From: a virus
Length of the DNA stretch: 64,000 nucleotides
UHGV virus genome: UHGV-0018639
Strand: one strand, 5' to 3'
In this document: positions 12,610-38,275 of the stretch, in pieces
Layout of the letters: each line of letters starts with the position of its first letter
How positions within the stretch are numbered: position 1 is the stretch's first letter
Position numbers and translations under genes: made by a program
Notes under the pieces: model-generated
What the model was told of the DNA's origin: nothing
Seen by the model: the letters and a program-made list of their open reading frames with translations, nothing else
The model's database searches: none

Positions 12610-13149
12610 ATGCGAATTGCAAAGAACTTAGATAATTATGACTATACGAATCGACTGAAAATCCGTAACCTTGATAATACTGATATGCTTGATTTCAATT
12701 GCGGCGGAGCTGCTTTGATGACGTTCGATGGATTCGTTCCTGACCATGAGCGTGATTCGTATGAAGAAGGCATTGACGACGATATTGAAATGGGGCTTGA
12801 GTCTTGGGAAGTCATTGACAGACTTCTTTGGCGCGATGTTGATGAAATGCTGCATCTTTTTGCAGGTCGTCTTCGACTGGCTGACGCGGGAGAACAGCCG
12901 CAAGAAAATGAACGTCTTATCGCATATCGCGTAGCACTCTCTTATGAAGAAGATGATGGTTGTGGCACGCTGATTGATACTGACTTTCACTTTAAGTATA
13001 TGGATAGTGATGGGCAGTGGTATCAAAAAAGAGGTTTCTTCAACCCGATTGAGAAGTGTGATTTGTCTGCTGATTCAATTTGGGAATGTGGGCCTTTGTG
13101 CCCGCCTTATACATCAGATATTGTGTTTATGATGCTTACGAAAATTTGA
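12610..13149 (+). CDS. hypothetical acidic protein (about 179 aa)
   Basis: ATG 8 nt after AAGGAG; the ORF track's 12601 is an alternative start. Confidence 0.5.
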   Translation: MRIAKNLDNYDYTNRLKIRNLDNTDMLDFNCGGAALMTFDGFVPDHERDSYEEGIDDDIEMGLESWEVIDRLLWRDVDEMLHLFAGRLRLADAGEQPQENERLIAYRVALSYEEDDGCGTLIDTDFHFKYMDSDGQWYQKRGFFNPIEKCDLSADSIWECGPLCPPYTSDIVFMMLTKI

Positions 13150-13185
13150 TTTTCTTTCAGATTTTTTATATAATATATATAGAAA
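13146..13185 (+). promoter_or_regulatory. class-II promoter TTGATT-N17-TATAATATATATAGAAAG
   Basis: -35 at 13146-51, -10 at 13169-74, conserved ATATATAGAAA downstream. Confidence 0.7.
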
Positions 13186-13205
13186 GTTGAGAGAGGAGCT
13201 TGAAA

Positions 13206-13499
13206 ATGGCTAATCGTATAACCCCTGAACAAATAAAACAAATCAATTTAGCTTATCTTTCGTGCCATACATATAATGGCGCGGCAAAAGCAGCGGGTGT
13301 TAGCCCGTCAACAGCAAAGAAATATATCGATCCAAATTTTCAAGCTCCGGATACGAATATTGTAGCTAAAGTAGTAGAGCCGCTACCTATGAATACAATC
13401 AATCCGTTTGTGTGCGCGAGTGAAATTTTTGAAGCAACTCAGTTATCTGACGCAGAAAAATCTGAAATGCCATTGTTTTGGAAGGAGATTTTGATATGA
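13206..13499 (+). CDS. small helix-turn-helix DNA-binding protein
   Basis: YNGAAKAAGVSPSTAKKY is HTH-like. Class-II promoter immediately upstream. Confidence 0.55.
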   Translation: MANRITPEQIKQINLAYLSCHTYNGAAKAAGVSPSTAKKYIDPNFQAPDTNIVAKVVEPLPMNTINPFVCASEIFEATQLSDAEKSEMPLFWKEILI

Positions 13500-13777
13500 A
13501 AACTTGGTTTATGTATCGAGAGAATCCAGATGGGAAATTTACAATAGTTCCTATTTATAAAAACTTTGGTGAAGATTGGAAAATAATGGGATCTTGGGCG
13601 GTGCTTCCCGCACGGCTGTTTGGATTGAGTTGGGCCGATTATCTGCGTTATTGCAGACAGTGCGGCGCCGATGTGCGAGGTAAGGCGCACCAGTATCCTA
13701 TTATTGCGTGGGATAAGAAGAATGATGAGTTCTTGAATGAGTTGAATAAGCGCGCGAATGAGTTGATTAAAATTTGA
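13496..13777 (+). CDS. hypothetical protein (about 93 aa)
   Basis: ATG after GGAAGGAG; overlaps the previous stop (ATATGA). Confidence 0.5.
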   Translation: MKTWFMYRENPDGKFTIVPIYKNFGEDWKIMGSWAVLPARLFGLSWADYLRYCRQCGADVRGKAHQYPIIAWDKKNDEFLNELNKRANELIKI

Positions 13778-13813
13778 TTTTGGCTGAAATTTTTTGTATA
13801 ATATATACAGAAA
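13774..13813 (+). promoter_or_regulatory. class-II promoter driving tRNA-Leu(TAA) and the SPFH gene
   Basis: TTGATT 13774-79, N17, TATAAT 13797-802, ATATACAGAAAG. Confidence 0.7.
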
Positions 13814-13821
13814 GTTGAAAT

Positions 13822-13907
13822 GCGGGACTGGTGTAATTGGTAGCCACATTTGATTTAAGCTCAAATGGCCTTTGGTCGTAAGGGTTCGAGTCCCTTGTCC
13901 CGCACCA
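13822..13907 (+). tRNA. tRNA-Leu (anticodon TAA), type II
   Basis: Cloverleaf GCGGGAC..GTGTAATTGGTAGCCAC..anticodon loop TTTAAGC..long variable arm..AAGGGTTCGAGTCCCTT..GTCCCGCACCA. Sits directly behind a class-II promoter. Confidence 0.85.
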
Positions 13908-13974
13908 ATTGCCGTTTTCAGTGGCGGCTTAGAAACAGTTCTCAAAGAAGTATCAAAAAGAAAGGAGAAAATGA

Positions 13975-14877
13975 ATGTCATTTTTCGTAAGAACAGTAAC
14001 TGATCGGTATGGGGATACAAATACTTATCCTCGTTGGGGCAGAATAGTGGGGTGCGCTATAGGGGCACTACTTGTTCTAATTATAATTCTCTCTTGTTTT
14101 ACTAAAGTTCCTACTGGCAATACTGGTATTGTCACTACATTTGGTAAGGTTGAGAATTATACATTGGATTCAGGCTTTCATCTAAAAGCTCCGTGGCAGA
14201 AGATAGTTAAGATGGATAATCGAGTACAGAAGCAGAGTATTGATTTGATGTGTTTCTCTTCTGATATTCAGGAAGTCTCTATGACTTATACAATTAACTT
14301 CCAGATTAGTAAGAGCGATGCAATGACGATTTATTCTACCATCGGCACTCATTATTATGAAACCGTTATTATGCCTTGTATTACCGAGTCAGTTAAGACA
14401 GTTTGTGCACGATATACCGCAGAAGAGCTAGTGGGCATGAGAAGTGAACTTGCTTCAGCAATAGAGGAAGATCTTTCTGAGAAATTAATTAATTACAACA
14501 TAGAGCTTGTTTCTACTTCTGTTGAGAACATGGATTTCACTGATGTCTTTACTGATGCTGTTGAAGCAAAGCAGGTTGCAGCACAGAATAAGCTCACCGC
14601 ACAGACTCGTGCTGAGCAGGAAGTTATTGAAGCCGAAGCAGCGGCTAAGGTTCAGGTAATTCAGGCACAGGCTGATGCAGATGCAATGGTGGCTAAGGCT
14701 CAGGCCGAAGCAGAAGCGACTCGAATTCGTGCAGAAGCCGAAGCAGAAGCCAACGCGAAGGTTGCCGCGTCTCTAACAAATGCGCTAATTGATTATACTT
14801 ATGCACAGCATTGGGATGGTAAGTATCCTACCTATTATGGTGGTAATGGTACGACTCCTGTTATCGATCTTAGATAA
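13975..14877 (+). CDS. SPFH/band-7 (prohibitin/HflK-like) membrane protein
   Basis: N-terminal TM helix, an SPFH core (PTGNTGIVTTFGKV...) and a C-terminal Ala/Glu-rich coiled coil (AEAEAAAKVQVIQAQADADAMVAKAQAEAEA). 300 aa. Confidence 0.75.
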   Translation: MSFFVRTVTDRYGDTNTYPRWGRIVGCAIGALLVLIIILSCFTKVPTGNTGIVTTFGKVENYTLDSGFHLKAPWQKIVKMDNRVQKQSIDLMCFSSDIQEVSMTYTINFQISKSDAMTIYSTIGTHYYETVIMPCITESVKTVCARYTAEELVGMRSELASAIEEDLSEKLINYNIELVSTSVENMDFTDVFTDAVEAKQVAAQNKLTAQTRAEQEVIEAEAAAKVQVIQAQADADAMVAKAQAEAEATRIRAEAEAEANAKVAASLTNALIDYTYAQHWDGKYPTYYGGNGTTPVIDLR

Positions 14878-16365: not shown

Positions 16366-16375
16366 ACCCACATAT

Positions 16376-16464
16376 GCGGGATGAACTCAGACGGCTCTGA
16401 GACCGGTCTTGAAAACCGTGGGCAGGTGAAAGCTTGTGGGGATCGACACCTCCGTCCCGCGCCA
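16376..16464 (+). tRNA. tRNA-Ser (anticodon TGA), type II
   Basis: Anticodon arm CCGGT-CTTGAAA-ACCGT is near-identical to E. coli serT. Long variable arm, T-loop ATCGACA, GTCCCGC-G-CCA. Confidence 0.7.
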
Positions 16465-18356: not shown

Positions 18357-19089
18357 ATAAAGAAAAGAAAAAGTCAAAAGGAGGACGATGCTAGTGCCAC
18401 CTACACGTGGTATCCTCTGTTTTCGCTAAGAGCGCTGGCATATATTCAATTAAATAATACTAACTCAGTGAAGACGGAATTCGATGTTCCGGCTGAGAAA
18501 TTCTAGCTAGCACAGCAGAAACGAAACAAGGATACTTGTGGATACTGGACTGGGAGGCCATCGAGAGATGAGCCGAAGTAGAGCGGTTGCTCAAGTGGGA
18601 AGAAGAGCAGGAATTGTGCTGAGTGAATCGCAAGTAAACGCAGCCGTGGAGTGGCGGGCGCAATAGATAGCTTGGTGAATAGCCAAGCCGAATCCAAGTT
18701 AGGTTTTAGTTGGTGACTGTGACAATCCTTGGAAAAGCCAATAAGCTCGTTCCGTTGAGACGACAGGGAATGTGAAATCTGTCTTTGACACTCTACAGTA
18801 TCCGAGTAGCGGAACACAACGGGGACTTTAGATTAAAAAGATGTTGACAGTAATAGAAATTACTACTTTCTGAACATCCCGTGAAAGGTAGAGGTAATCA
18901 ATCCTCTGGCGGATTAGGCGACATTAGACACTTGGGGTTATCCAAGACTAACAAGTCAATGTTGTTGCTGGGGTAAGAAGTGTATGGGCGACGGCCTGTA
19001 TGCTCAGACTTATCTCCCGCGTGGCAGAATATGCTTGAAGGTTTATCGAGGTAGGGCGAAGGCCCAGTAATATTTAGTTGGATTTATAT
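18346..19089 (+). ncRNA. ORF-free transcribed region A (candidate structured RNA) between a class-II promoter and tRNA-Met
   Basis: About 745 nt with no ORF of 60 aa or more on the sense strand. GC is higher than in flanking DNA. It opens with AAAGGAGG plus a 13-codon ORF (MLVPPTRGILCFR) and ends in a tRNA followed by a terminator. Confidence 0.35.
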
Positions 19090-21138: not shown

Positions 21139-21453
21139 ATGGATAAATATACTGGCTATTACGAATGGCGCCCATCAGAGCAAGGGCTTGAGGACTTTTA
21201 TTCTGGCTTTTTTACTCCTGCGGGGATGGGTCTGGTAGAAAACCAGTATTTGATTATCTATGACGCTGATGGCAAAGTTATAGATAAATATTTTTGTAAG
21301 AACAACGAGTTTGAGAAAGTTCATTATATGACACTCCAAAGCGATTACTGCGGCGTTATCAAACCGCGCAATGTGTATCAGGAACTAGCAATTCACGCAC
21401 TGTTAGATAGGCGTGTTCCTGTAAAGGCGCTGGGTGGTGTTTTTGGTTCGGGT
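21139..21453 (+). CDS. phoH: PhoH-like ATPase, exon 1 (N-terminal part up to the Walker A glycines)
   Basis: Ends ...RVPVKALGGVFGSG, the PhoH P-loop start. The in-frame TAA at 21457 lies inside the intron. Confidence 0.65.
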
Positions 21454-21680
21454 AAATAACTTGCCCCTTCTTAGGGCGACCTAAGAATGAAAATCGCGTG
21501 AATTGCTGGAAACCTAAGCCGCGAGGTATGGTAATCAGCAGCCAAGCCGTTTAACAACGGAAGGTTCAACGACTATCCCGACAGGGAGTAGGGAGCAATC
21601 CCGAAGTGCGCGACAACTTTCAAAGTTGATGATATAGTCTAATCCCCTTTTGAAATATCGGGAAACCGAGGGTATAAATG
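21454..21680 (+). ncRNA. group I self-splicing intron (no homing-endonuclease ORF, about 227 nt; boundaries approximate)
   Basis: Core elements P GAATTGCTGGAAACC (21500), Q AATCAGCAGCC (21533), R GTTCAACGACTAT (21564) and S GATGATATAGTCT (21628). P4 shows compensatory pairing TGCTG/CAGCA and P7 pairs GACTAT/ATAGTC. A P1 is possible between the exon end CGGGT and GCCC, and the omega-G is G21680. Confidence 0.7.
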
Positions 21681-22211
21681 AAGGACTTCCTAATGAGCGG
21701 TGCCTGTTTCAGTCTTATCGAAAAAGGCATCTTTGAAAAACTCGTATATATACGCCCTAACATTACACTTGAAGGTGTGCCTGACATCGGCTATCTCAAG
21801 GGTGGAATGGATGAAAAACTTGAATGGACTTTAGCTCCATTATGGGATAAGTTCGGTGGCCGCGAAGCTACTCAAAATCTTGTTGCTTCTGGCAAGATTG
21901 AACTTGTGGCTTTGCCTTTTATTAAAGGTCGTAGCTTTGAGAACAGTATTATCTATGTAAGTGAAGGTCAAAATATAACCCGCAAAGTAGCTGGTAATAT
22001 TATAAGCCGCGCTGGTGAAAACACTGAGATTTGGATAAATGGCGACTATCACAGTCAAACTGACCGTAGAATGTTTGAGATTGATAATGGTATGCGCGCA
22101 ATGGAAGAGACTCTGAAGGGTAATTCATTATATGAAACCCTTTATCTCCCAATCACGGAACGTTCGGCTGTTGCACAGCTTGCTGGAATTGTTTGCAATA
22201 CTGAAAATTGA
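21681..22211 (+). CDS. phoH: PhoH-like ATPase, exon 2
   Basis: KDFLMSGA...RPNITLEGVPDIGYLKGGMDEKLEWTLAPLWD...VALPFIKGRSFENSIIYVSEGQNIT...INGDYHSQTD aligns with the PhoH Walker B and C-terminal blocks. Confidence 0.65.
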   Translation, partial: KDFLMSGACFSLIEKGIFEKLVYIRPNITLEGVPDIGYLKGGMDEKLEWTLAPLWDKFGGREATQNLVASGKIELVALPFIKGRSFENSIIYVSEGQNITRKVAGNIISRAGENTEIWINGDYHSQTDRRMFEIDNGMRAMEETLKGNSLYETLYLPITERSAVAQLAGIVCNTEN

Positions 22212-32212: not shown

Positions 32213-33194
32213 ATGATAGGTGTAGATCTAAATCAATATCGTAATCTACCCGATTACACACAACTTAAAAAGGATGGCTATGAGTTTGCTATTATAAAAT
32301 TGGCAACTGGTGTATCCTTTACTAATCCTTTATTTCAAACCCAGTTTAGTGGTTGTAAGTCAGCCGGCCTCAACATTGGCGTTTATACTCGTGCCGACAA
32401 GCAACCTACAAGCGGTGCACAGGAAGCTGCCTATGCACTTAATATACTGGGTAATCGTCACGTAGATTTCCCCATTTACTATGACGTAGAGGGAGAAACA
32501 CTAAATCTTTCAAAAGACAAACTGACTCAGCTGATTCTTGATTTTGGTGAAGCAATAAAACGTGCAGGATATCGTTGGGGTATTTATACATCCCGCGCAC
32601 ATTTCAAGTGCTTTGACCTTGACAAGCTAAAAGAGGCTGGCGCATCTATATGGTGTGCCGCCTATGACACACAAGCTGGAATGGAGTGCGACATTTGGCA
32701 AAAGTCAGATAAAGGCTCTATTACAGGATATTCTGGACCAGTTGATGTGGATGTTTTATATAATGAAAGCATAATACAGAAGGAGGAAAATAAAATGAGT
32801 TTGAATTTGATAAAATGTTTTCAAACACAGGGCGCGTGGTATAATCAAACCACAAATGGTACTCCTGTTGGGGTATGTTGGCATGATACTGGCGCTGGTA
32901 ATCCAACATTGAAGCGTTATGTTCAGCCATCTACTAATGACCCTGATTATAATTATTTTATAAATCTTATCGGTAAGAACAATAATGGCAATCACTGGAA
33001 TCGTATGGCTGCAAATCAGGCAGGGTTAAATGCTTGGATTGGTCAGCTTGCAGACGGTAGCGTTGCTACTATTCAAGCTGGCCCTTGGGAGAAACGTCCT
33101 TGGGGCGTTGGCTCTGGTAAATATGGTTCACTCAATGGTGATAAGAATGTACCTAATGATAAGTTTTGGATCCAGTTTGAGATTACATCATCGT
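32213..33194 (+). CDS. endolysin exon 1: GH25 muramidase plus the first half of an amidase-like domain
   Basis: GH25 blocks GVDLNQY..DGYEFAIIKLATG..GLNIGVYTRA..FPIYYDVEG..WGIYTS..IWCAAY. The second domain begins VGVCWHDTGAG. There is an internal in-frame AGGAGG-N8-ATG at about 32789. The ORF-track stop at 33206 lies in the intron. Confidence 0.65.
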
Positions 33195-33525
33195 TAGTCT
33201 CCGCGTAAAGCGATTTGCGTGTAAAAATACATATCGAATTGCTGGGAAACTGTAAAGCTATTCTTGCTACAACGTAAGGATGAAATAAGCCTAAGCGTGA
33301 AAGCCGCGAAAGCAGAAAGAAAAGAATAGATGGCGTATGGTCAAATCCTAAGCGCCGTATAATTGGCAATCAGCAGCTAAGCCTTGAATAGAGGAAAGTT
33401 CAACGACTAAGTGCCTTGCAAGCGATTGGCAAGGACAGTGGTATGTGGCTCATTGAGCTAAAGATATAGTCTGTGCTTCGAGAGAAATCCGAAGGAGCGA
33501 AAGCTCAGTGCGGGGTAGCGACCCG
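33195..33525 (+). ncRNA. group I self-splicing intron (no ORF, about 331 nt; boundaries approximate)
   Basis: Core elements P GAATTGCTGGGAAAC (33236), Q AATCAGCAGC (33368), R GTTCAACGACTAA (33398) and S AAGATATAGTCT (33461), nearly identical to the phoH intron. P1 pairs exon ATCGT with GCGAT (33210), and omega-G is G33525. Confidence 0.65.
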
Positions 33526-34604
33526 TTCTAAACACAAACAGATGCGATGATTACGCACACAACCAGCCTTGCCGCAAGGCTTACTTCGAGCAAGCTTATC
33601 AACAAGCTGTCGAATTTACCGCCTACATTTGCCAACTCTACAATATAGATCCGTTTGGCACTGTCAACTATCGCGGCCACGATGTCCCGACAATTTGTTG
33701 CCACTATGACAGCTATAAGCTCGGCTTCGGCTCTAACCACGGCGACGTCTATCTTTGGTTTAATCGTTTCGGCAAGACAATGGATGACGTTAGACGTGAT
33801 GTCGGCGCACTGATGGGTAAGGTTGTTGTTCCTGACACTCCTGGCCCCGTCATTCCGACTCAACCGTCTAAGCCTTCTAACCCCTATCCGACTCTCAGAG
33901 TTGGCACGCACAGCTCAGCCGTCAAAACTGCACAGCAGCGCCTTATCGCGCACGGTTATAGTGTAGGTTCTGCTGGCGCTGATGGTTGGTTTGGTGAGGG
34001 CACTCTTAATGCCGTCAAGAAATTCCAGTCCGCCAAAGGTTTGACCGTTGATGGTATAATTGGTTCTGCTACTTGGACAGCACTCAATAAGGAGCCAGAG
34101 AAAAAGGAAGAACCCGTCAAGCCTGTGCAACCAAGTGAGCCAGCTAAGCCTGTCCAACCATCCACTAACCGCCCGACAATCGGCGTTGGTGATAGTGGAG
34201 CTTACGTAAAAGAAGCTCAAACAATGTTGAAAAAGCTCGGCTATGACATTGGTAAATATGGTGCCGATGGTGTATTTGGCAACTCTACTAAAGCAGCAGT
34301 TCTCAATTTCCAAAAGAAAAACAATCTTGCCGCTGACGGTATTGTTGGCCCAAATACTTGGGTCGAACTTGACAAGCAAGTTGCCGCACTGTCAAAAAAG
34401 TCTGACAGCTCTAATGGTGTCCCATTCCTTGTCCGAGTAAACTCCAACGCTCTCAATATTCGCAAAGGCCCCGGCACTAACTATGCGATAGCTCGTGTGA
34501 TTACTGACCGCGGCACTTATACAATTATTGAGGTGTCTGGTGAATGGGGTAAACTCAAGAGCGGCGCTGGCTGGATAAATCTGAATTATACTACTAGAGT
34601 TTGA
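33526..34604 (+). CDS. endolysin exon 2: amidase-like C-half, two PG_binding_1 domains, C-terminal SH3b
   Basis: The frame is open from 33519 and joins the 33780 ORF. It contains ...AYQQAVEFTAYICQLYNIDPFGTVNYRGHDVP..., two AVKTAQQRLIAHGY...DGWFG...TW motifs and NIRKGPGTNYAIARVITDRGTYTIIEVSGEWGKLKSGAGWINLNY. The spliced product is about 686 aa. Confidence 0.6.
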
Positions 34605-34609
34605 TACAT

Positions 34610-34641
34610 GACACTCCTGTTTATCAGGAGTGTCTTTTTTA
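34610..34641 (+). terminator. intrinsic terminator after the endolysin
   Basis: GACACTCCTGTTTATCAGGAGTGTC followed by TTTTTTAT. Confidence 0.8.
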
Positions 34642-37272: not shown

Positions 37273-37347
37273 AGCTGGATAGCTCAGTTGGTAGAGAGCT
37301 AACATTTGGAAGGTTAGAGGGCGATGGTTCGAATCCATCTCTGGCTC
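37273..37347 (+). tRNA. tRNA, anticodon uncertain (TGG/Pro-like), possibly with a 9-nt anticodon loop; no encoded CCA
   Basis: AGCTGGA..GCTCAGTTGGTAGAGAGC..CTAAC-ATTTGGAAG-GTTAG..GATGGTTCGAATCCATC..TCTGGCT-C. Good acceptor, D and T arms. The anticodon stem is either 5 bp with a 9-nt loop, or a 7-nt loop TTTGGAA closed by an A-G pair. Confidence 0.55.
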
Positions 37348-38195: not shown

Positions 38196-38275
38196 GGTGC
38201 GTTAGGCGAATTGGTAGAGCCGCTACCCTTTCAAGGTAGAGTTTTTTGGGAGTTCAAGCCTCCCACGCATCACCA
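38196..38275 (+). tRNA. tRNA-Glu (anticodon TTC)
   Basis: GGTGCGT..CTACC-CTTTCAA-GGTAG..GGGAGTTCAAGCCTCCC..ACGCATC-A-CCA, followed by a terminator hairpin. Confidence 0.7.

Follow-up and report, generated by a model that had tools for sequence, protein, structure and literature searches.

A probable group I intron lacking an open reading frame in the endolysin gene of the phage genome UHGV-0018639

Results

The endolysin locus

We analysed a stretch of 64,000 nucleotides (nt) of the virus genome UHGV-0018639, called the window at its full length, in which two neighbouring frames encode parts of what appears to be a single endolysin. An earlier reading made from the letters alone (the sequence-only reading) had proposed that a group I intron without an open reading frame (ORF) interrupts this gene inside its Amidase_2 domain and that splicing joins the catalytic domains to the wall-binding domains. 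Our analysis bears out this central proposal and moves the splice sites: with high confidence, we assign positions 33184-33541 to a 358-nt, ORF-less group I intron within the gene for an endolysin of 677 residues. The comparison draws on related phage contigs from IMG/VR, of which L001, L002 and L003 carry the gene uninterrupted. The locus is organised as follows.

32213-33183, + strand: exon 1, residues 1-323 and the AT of codon 324, coding for GH25, a linker of 11 residues and the N-terminal two thirds of Amidase_2 (ORF list; blastn to L001 and L002)
33184-33541, + strand: group I intron, 358 nt, terminal G33541 (RF00028 match, alignment breaks to L001 and L002, helix covariation)
33542-34604, + strand: exon 2, opening with base three (A) of codon 324 and running through residues 325-677 to the stop codon, with the C-terminal third of Amidase_2, two PG_binding_1 repeats and an SH3-like end (L001 and L002 align again from 33542)
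32222-32728, + strand: muramidase domain of the GH25 family, residues 4-172 (PF01183, 80.4 bits, cut-off 27)
32795-33806, + strand: Amidase_2 domain, residues 195 to about 412 (PF01510, 31.6 bits when spliced), with the intron in codon 324, between Ile324 and Cys325 of QFEICDD
33885-34379, + strand: PG_binding_1 repeats, about 33885-34094 and 34170-34379 (PF01471, 131.5 bits in two stretches, cut-off 23)
34425-34601, + strand: C-terminal SH3-like domain (SH3_3, PF08239, 22.1 bits, under the cut-off of 27)
34610-34634, + strand: terminator-like hairpin, a 10-bp stem followed by a T run, directly after the lysin stop codon

Several elements pointed out by the sequence-only reading are present as described. 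The GH25 frame, which opens at ATG 32213 with AAAGGAG lying 9 nt upstream, stops at TAA 33206-33208; a downstream frame is open from 33519 and continues into an ORF at 33780; and four group I core strings are found, GAATTGCTGGGAAAC at 33236, AATCAGCAGC at 33368, GTTCAACGACTAA at 33398 and AAGATATAGTCT at 33461. The group I assignment was confirmed by an Rfam scan, which matched RF00028 at 33145-33494 on the + strand with 65.8 bits (E 1.8e-14; gathering score 50) and covered the full model positions 1-253. A second RF00028 match, at 21444-21662 (88 bits), corresponds to an intron in the phoH region, and a permissive Rfam scan of the whole window revealed no third intron. The ORF list contains no + strand ORF of at least 40 residues inside 33184-33541, and no convincing terminator-like site was found on the + strand within the intron.

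Intron boundaries

When all in-frame, stop-free pairs of a U-ending 5′ site and a G-ending 3′ site were enumerated, the pair 33183|33541 was the one giving ...FWIQFEI|CDDYAH.... The blastn alignments of the window to the intron-less contigs L001 (146.6 kb) and L002 (154.6 kb) end at 33183 and restart at 33542, and the alignment to L003 breaks at 33184|33543. L001 reads CAGTTTGAGAT|ATGCGATGATTA, that is, exon 1 of the window abutting exon 2; its junction is also represented by TGGATCCAGTTTGAGATATGCGATGATTATGC. An Rfam scan found no intron in L001-L003 and found one in three further contigs, L004-L006. Because the alignments to L001 and L002 stop at 33183 and resume at 33542, the intron spans 33184-33541, and the comparison establishes the predicted 5′ splice site after U33183 and G33541 as the predicted terminal G. 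The spliced junction should accordingly read TTTGAGAT|ATGCGATG, which can also be written CAGTTTGAGAT|ATGCGATGATTAC.

The protein sequences point to the same junction. QFEICDD is ungapped in 19 of 19 aligned homologues, with Q, F, E, C and D invariant both there and in an alignment of 45 sequences. A search with the amidase domain returned 1645 relatives, and the best 120 each span the junction with 94-100% query coverage. With the exons joined at 33183|33542, Amidase_2 scores 31.6 bits, above its cut-off of 26. Among the three independent tests of the predicted junction (protein homologues, Pfam score and alleles), we regard the intron-less alleles as decisive.

Structure of the intron RNA

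Helices placed by hand on the window sequence consist of standard pairs throughout. The elements of the model are listed in order along the RNA.

33179-33201, + strand: P1, exon GAGAU (33179-83) paired with the guide GUCUC (33197-201) in 5 standard pairs, including the wobble U33183·G33197 at the 5′ splice site
33187-33194, + strand: P10 guide, AUCAUCGU paired with exon 2 GCGAUGAU (33544-33551) in 8 pairs, including G33544·U33194
33206-33208, + strand: in-frame stop codon TAA, reached 23 nt into the intron and looped out by a small CGC/GCG hairpin (tentative P2, 33202-33212)
33229-33446, + strand: P3, 33229-33 with 33442-46 and 33235-36 with 33439-40, enclosing P4-P6, the 5′ strand of P7 and P7.1 (Rfam alignment)
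33240-33375, + strand: P4, 33240-45 with 33370-75, enclosing the branched P5 extension
33376-33399, + strand: P6, 33376-77 with 33398-99 and 33382-84 with 33392-94
33405-33471, + strand: P7, GACUA (33405-09) with UAGUC (33467-71), crossing P3 to form a pseudoknot
33414-33434, + strand: P7.1 hairpin, CCUUGC with GCAAGG, between P7 and the 3′ strand of P3
33447-33459, + strand: P8 hairpin, 5 pairs
33476-33525, + strand: P9 (33476-80 with 33490-94), P9.1 (33495-98 with 33503-06, GAAA loop) and P9.2 (33511-14 with 33522-25)

The branched P5 extension, of approximately 100-120 nt, includes P5a (33258-65 with 33322-29) together with a hairpin (33330-35 with 33353-58). This architecture, running from P1 to P10 with the branched P5 extension, P7.1, P9.1 and P9.2, is that of a group I intron. 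P7 would presumably hold the guanosine-binding G-C pair. One covarying hairpin, P7.1, lies between P7 and the 3′ strand of P3, where introns of subgroup IA (IA2-like phage introns) have the extra helices P7.1/P7.2. On the general Rfam model used here, the window intron may belong to this subgroup; IA2 is itself heterogeneous (PMC11878797). An unconstrained minimum-free-energy fold of the intron did not reproduce the group I core, as expected because the structure has a pseudoknot, and this fold was left unused.

When the helix model was applied to seven related introns, 91.4% of the cells were paired, against 36-44% when the partners were slid. Both sides have changed in 31 of the 59 pairs, and none of 500 shuffles reached the observed values. 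Such two-sided changes are most abundant in P5a (7 of 8 pairs) and P7.1 (6 of 6), both with 100% of cells paired, and also occur in P8 (4 of 5) and P3 (4 of 7); P9 and P9.1 covary as well, and P4, P6 and P7 are invariant across the seven. The helices at the splice sites are likewise maintained in L004-L006. P1 of the window is conserved in these copies. The P10 guide carries three changes relative to the window (A to G, C to U and U to C), with one or two further changes on the exon 2 side in L004 and L006, and all 8 of 8 pairs are kept in every copy.

The predicted endolysin

Splicing at 33183|33542 would yield 677 residues comprising GH25, Amidase_2, two PG_binding_1 domains and an SH3-like end. 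Of the domains that the sequence-only reading had assigned, GH25, Amidase_2 and PG_binding_1 (twice) exceed their cut-offs in the spliced protein; its SH3 domain stays under the SH3_3 cut-off, and the junction that it had proposed fails the Amidase_2 cut-off. Homologues sharing the C-terminus of the endolysin have a precomputed PF08239 match.

Searched as a sequence profile against the PDB, the amidase domain had no match at E up to 0.01 and only a weak one, to PlyL, at E up to 10; we therefore turned to structure prediction and fold searching. The AlphaFold model of the spliced amidase domain has a predicted local distance difference test score (pLDDT) of 93.9 and a predicted template modelling score (pTM) of 0.92, with the junction at the end of strand 123-130. 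Its top Foldseek matches (probability 1.00, E 4e-8 to 3e-5) are AmiA, PlyL, PlyP100, AmiE, the LysGH15 amidase-2 domain, LytA, PlyG and XlyA. A weak alignment (18.1 bits, E 0.013) pairs FEIC with VEIC of PlyL, a motif changed to VAIC in the E90A mutant; the intron therefore probably lies one codon past the Glu aligned with catalytic E90 of PlyL. The amidase family also shows invariant His, Cys and Asp residues in the 19- and 45-sequence alignments. Over the first 95 codons of exon 2, codons with synonymous changes only and codons with replacements number 46 and 5 against L001, 53 and 5 against L002, and 32 and 7 against L004, a pattern that indicates purifying selection acting on exon 2 in the lysin frame. 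As judged from these comparisons, splicing restores a continuous Amidase_2 domain.

At the boundary of GH25 and the amidase (32780-32797, + strand), AAGGAGG (32780-86), a strong Shine-Dalgarno sequence, is followed after 8 nt by the in-frame ATG 32795 (Met195). Stand-alone homologues (P0001-P0005) start at the equivalent of Met195 with MSLNLIKC. The in-frame GH25-Amidase_2 fusion is kept in L001-L004, and L003 has GTG at the Met195 position. ATG 32795 is thus a candidate internal start, from which a second product with the amidase and wall-binding domains might possibly be made.

Allele states and the endonuclease gene

The 126-132-kb contigs L004, L005 and L006 carry the same intron at the same site. 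Their copies are 96% identical to the window over 33184-33523 and are 1089 nt long, the additional 735 nt lying after P9.2 at the point that matches window positions 33523-33528. This block encodes an ORF of 240 residues that is intact in all three (at 3746-4468 in L004). The encoded protein matches NUMOD3 with 40.8 bits in three stretches (cut-off 20.4) and HNH with 20.4 bits, just under the cut-off of 21.4. No relative of this HNH/NUMOD3 protein was found in the window by tblastn (best E 1.7). The site is empty in L001-L003 and occupied in L004-L006 and the window; this phage group therefore shows three states, namely an empty site, an intron with an endonuclease gene and an intron without one. 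An insertion site this conserved is typical of a homing target.

Outside the 96% identical ribozyme, the identity of the window to L004-L006 varies along the gene. It is 92-96% in exon 1 and 83-84% in exon 2 past the first 150 nt, and these first 150 nt are 92.7% identical to L005 and 84.7% identical to L004 and L006. Such a mosaic around the intron could reflect recombination or co-conversion.

The phoH intron and other related introns

The phoH-like gene of the window (21139-22211) is split by an intron at about 21454-21680. An intron-less phoH allele (L013) reads GSGK|D, and the spliced Walker A motif would be GVFGSGKD, with Asp in the position usually taken by Ser or Thr. In two sister phages (L014 and L016), the phoH intron contains an ORF of 246 residues at about window position 21620, with LAGLIDADG-type motifs read by eye; in a third (L015), the intron is ORF-less.

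A closer relative of the lysin intron is found in another gene of a phage whose own lysin is intron-less, IMGVR_UViG_3300045988_146757 (L025, positions 13091-14254; 68% identity over 316 nt, Rfam 89.4 bits). The ORF upstream of that intron ends ...VSGNHHDIF, and beyond P9.2 lies an ORF in which GIY-YIG-type motifs are accompanied by NUMOD-like repeats. The P7.1 sequence of the window's lysin intron is identical in the L004-L006 and L025 introns, and its branched P5 extension is shared with the introns of L025, an Enterocloster phage and a Bacillus phage. The intron core is 73-76% identical to introns of Enterocloster, Clostridioides and Bacillus phages, the Bacillus phage intron being in a portal gene. 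INPHARED contained no close relative of the phage, the matches being to the intron core only (69-77%), and scans of IMG/VR for exact patterns from two intron segments returned the sister contigs and the one related intron of L025, and nothing else. The L025 intron suggests an exchange of ribozyme cores and of endonuclease genes within the phage group.

Other RNAs in the window

A full-length ROOL RNA lies at 18440-19085 (RF03087, 268.9 bits) within a cluster of approximately 13 transfer RNA (tRNA) genes at 13.8-20.4 kb, and two further tRNA genes are located at 37273-37347 and 38196-38272. A match to the tRNA-Sec model at 16375-16461 scores 46.2 bits, just below the gathering score of 47, and may be a long-arm tRNA instead of a selenocysteine tRNA.

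Discussion

How might this intron be removed? We propose that the precursor messenger RNA folds so that exon GAGAU and guide GUCUC form P1, and that the RNA is attacked after U33183 by a free guanosine occupying P7. P10 (33187-94 with 33544-51) would position exon 2, and the 3′-OH of U33183 would then attack after G33541, joining the exons as ...GAG AT|A TGC GAT... (FEI|CDD). Unspliced RNA would be read only as far as TAA 33206, giving 331 residues with GH25 and a truncated amidase and no wall-binding domains. The TAA would thereby end translation of the unspliced RNA ahead of the ribozyme core, and it presumably acts as a barrier to ribosomes.

Several points weigh against this interpretation. 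The splicing of 33184-33541 is deduced from sequence rather than observed; P1 has five pairs only, the 3-bp hairpin taken as P2 is tentative, and the fold is weak at the base of P5. The covariation alignment comprises seven introns, three of them near-identical, and its model was drawn from the window sequence, which favours the unslid structure. The weak PlyL alignment, the HNH score and the small number of intron copies available for the reconstruction below belong here as well. The locus might alternatively be a relic that no longer splices, expressed as two proteins: the 331-residue product of GH25 and an amidase fragment ending at TAA 33206, and a wall-binding protein starting at ATG 33780. 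Both ORFs are indeed present as listed, and our reliance on deduction for splicing leaves room for such a reading. We nevertheless consider it very unlikely. The core helices are all intact, the Rfam score is over the threshold, and P1 and P10 are retained in four diverged copies. The region upstream of ATG 33780 (33542-33779) is under strong purifying selection in the lysin frame and encodes invariant residues of Amidase_2, no Shine-Dalgarno sequence was found before ATG 33780, and the Met at this position is internal in all homologues (GKTMDDVR). Even less weight, indeed scarcely any, can be given to the junction favoured by the sequence-only reading, 33194|33526, with a P1 of CAUCGU (33189-94) and GCGAU (33210-14), G33525 as the terminal G and a lysin of 686 residues reading FEITSS-F-LNTNRCDD. 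Such a junction is in frame and free of stops, and AUCGU and GCGAU are able to form 5 pairs, the last being U·G. However, it adds nine residues, TSSFLNTNR, that lie opposite gaps in 19 of 19 homologues, and the corresponding 27 bases are missing from the intron-less L001-L003; the Amidase_2 score falls to 25.8 bits, under the cut-off. The P10 guide strand is the better explanation for bases 33187-94, and G33525 is the closing base of the P9.2 stem. The proposed 3′ site is, moreover, nonexistent in L004-L006 because what precedes the shared 3′ tail there is the end of the endonuclease ORF. The intron-less alleles thus effectively refute this junction and, with the homologues, point to 33183|33542 and 677 residues as the predicted arrangement.

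Where did the ORF-less intron come from? The sequence-only reading had described the lysin and phoH introns as nearly identical and had taken this as a sign of recent mobility within the genome, which would mean that one was recently copied from the other. Both match RF00028 and share the P, Q, R and S core strings. Their likeness, however, is confined to 47 nt at 83%, 16 nt at 87.5% and a 10-nt exact match, in introns of 358 and 227 nt; the phoH intron lacks the P5 extension and differs in the P7.1 region, P8 and P9. The sister phages carry different endonuclease types at different positions in the two introns, HNH/NUMOD3 after P9.2 in the lysin intron and the LAGLIDADG-motif ORF in a different loop of the phoH intron. 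The lysin intron is also closer to that of IMGVR_UViG_3300045988_146757 (68%, identical P7.1) and to the Enterocloster, Clostridioides and Bacillus phage introns (73-76%). Because only the universal catalytic core is common to the two, recent movement within the genome is unsupported, and we judge copying in either direction extremely unlikely. Another question is the direction of change between the ORF-bearing and ORF-less copies of the lysin intron itself. Most likely, the window copy lost the endonuclease gene that its sisters keep after P9.2: of the four known copies, three carry the ORF intact, identity across the ribozyme parts is 96%, and deletion derivatives have been documented for the lysin intron of Streptococcus thermophilus phages, according to the citation of Foley et al. 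2000 in PMC10980517. The window shows no ORF remnant, and its boundary bases differ from those of the sisters (ACCCGTTC against CCCAAAAAG...), so the event was not a clean deletion. For these two reasons the ORF-less form might instead be ancestral, the HNH/NUMOD3 gene having entered the P9.2 region later in the L004-L006 lineage, in which case the window copy would be no deletion derivative. Other endonuclease families occur at the same place, the GIY-YIG-motif ORF in L025 and an ORF annotated as 'intron-associated endonuclease 1' in the Enterocloster phage, which suggests repeated invasion and is in keeping with a late gain. With four intron copies to judge from, we regard this gain as a possibility of some substance, though clearly the less probable course, and continue to favour loss.

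The sequence-only reading had also held that an ORF-less intron must use homing or recombination machinery in trans. Such dependence is reasonable for the window copy, since the sister phages carry a matching endonuclease gene in the same intron; the window copy would now depend for its spread solely on recombination or on cleavage in trans by a co-infecting sister phage. An intron-encoded HNH nuclease has been discussed in the competition between the phages PhiPA3 and PhiKZ (PMC11878797). We speculate, although the idea is on balance unlikely, that the ORF-less intron is no mere decaying parasite but is kept since it splits the target of the HNH/NUMOD3 nuclease of co-circulating sister phages, which would make the essential lysin gene immune in mixed infections without the cost of a nuclease gene, and that its place one codon past the probable catalytic Glu, together with the early in-frame stop, may tie the output of active, wall-targeted lysin to the rate of splicing.

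The case has practical consequences. Gene callers would list two truncated ORFs here, when the actual predicted product is a 677-residue endolysin with two catalytic domains, and cloning of the endolysin needs the junction GAGAT|ATGCGA. The empty, endonuclease-bearing and ORF-less states, together with a related ribozyme that carries other endonuclease types in other genes, constitute a compact natural data set for studying how homing introns cycle and how endonuclease genes pass between them. General knowledge of group I introns and endolysins is unchanged.

Group I introns in phage lysis genes are long established, and the present one is an ordinary example. The intron in the lysin gene of phage K reportedly carries an HNH endonuclease. 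Introns of the Twort-like and K-like Staphylococcus phages (O'Flaherty et al. 2004, as cited in PMC11878797; Lavigne and Vandersteegen 2013, as cited in PMC4124061) resemble our case in that large phages of Gram-positive hosts carry multiple group I introns, of which some lie in lysis genes; HNH genes are present in some of these introns, and others are ORF-less. The lysin intron core is 69-72% identical to introns in Staphylococcus phage records (blastn), and it differs from them in the domain of the host gene, in the insertion site and in that the window copy is ORF-less. The closest precedent is the lysin intron of S. thermophilus phages, which interrupts a CHAP-type endolysin gene (PMC10980517) and of which shortened derivatives circulate, as the title of Foley et al. 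2000 states (cited in PMC10980517 and PMC11878797). In both groups, a group I intron lies in the endolysin gene, and intron-less and intron-bearing alleles coexist among relatives. The gene of the S. thermophilus phages is of the CHAP type, whereas ours encodes Amidase_2 in a GH25-Amidase_2 fusion in an uncultured phage of approximately 125-155 kb. No Streptococcus phage is among the blastn matches of the lysin intron, and no sequence relationship to the S. thermophilus intron was seen.

HNH and NUMOD endonucleases are common in the peripheral loops of phage introns (PMC11878797), and the sister-phage ORF, with HNH and NUMOD repeats in a peripheral ribozyme loop, resembles the intron-encoded HNH enzymes listed there. 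The DNA polymerase intron of the Bacillus phages SPO1 and SP82 codes for I-HmuI, an HNH endonuclease with nicking activity (Landthaler, Lau and Shub 2004, as cited in PMC7685451), and our intron core is 75.8% identical to a portal-gene intron of Bastillevirinae (blastn), a group whose introns are treated in PMC11878797. Compared with these introns, the host gene is another one, and the sister-phage enzyme is putative by its sequence and absent from the window. Another short ORF-less intron splits the gene for a virion-associated peptidoglycan hydrolase with a CHAP domain into two predicted ORFs and was recognised, as here, via an uninterrupted homologue. Support for that intron is mainly its size and weak similarity, whereas the window intron has boundaries, structure and covariation in its favour. 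Specific to the present case are its location, within a probable Amidase_2 active-site motif of a GH25-Amidase_2 fusion, and the occurrence of three allele states in one phage group.

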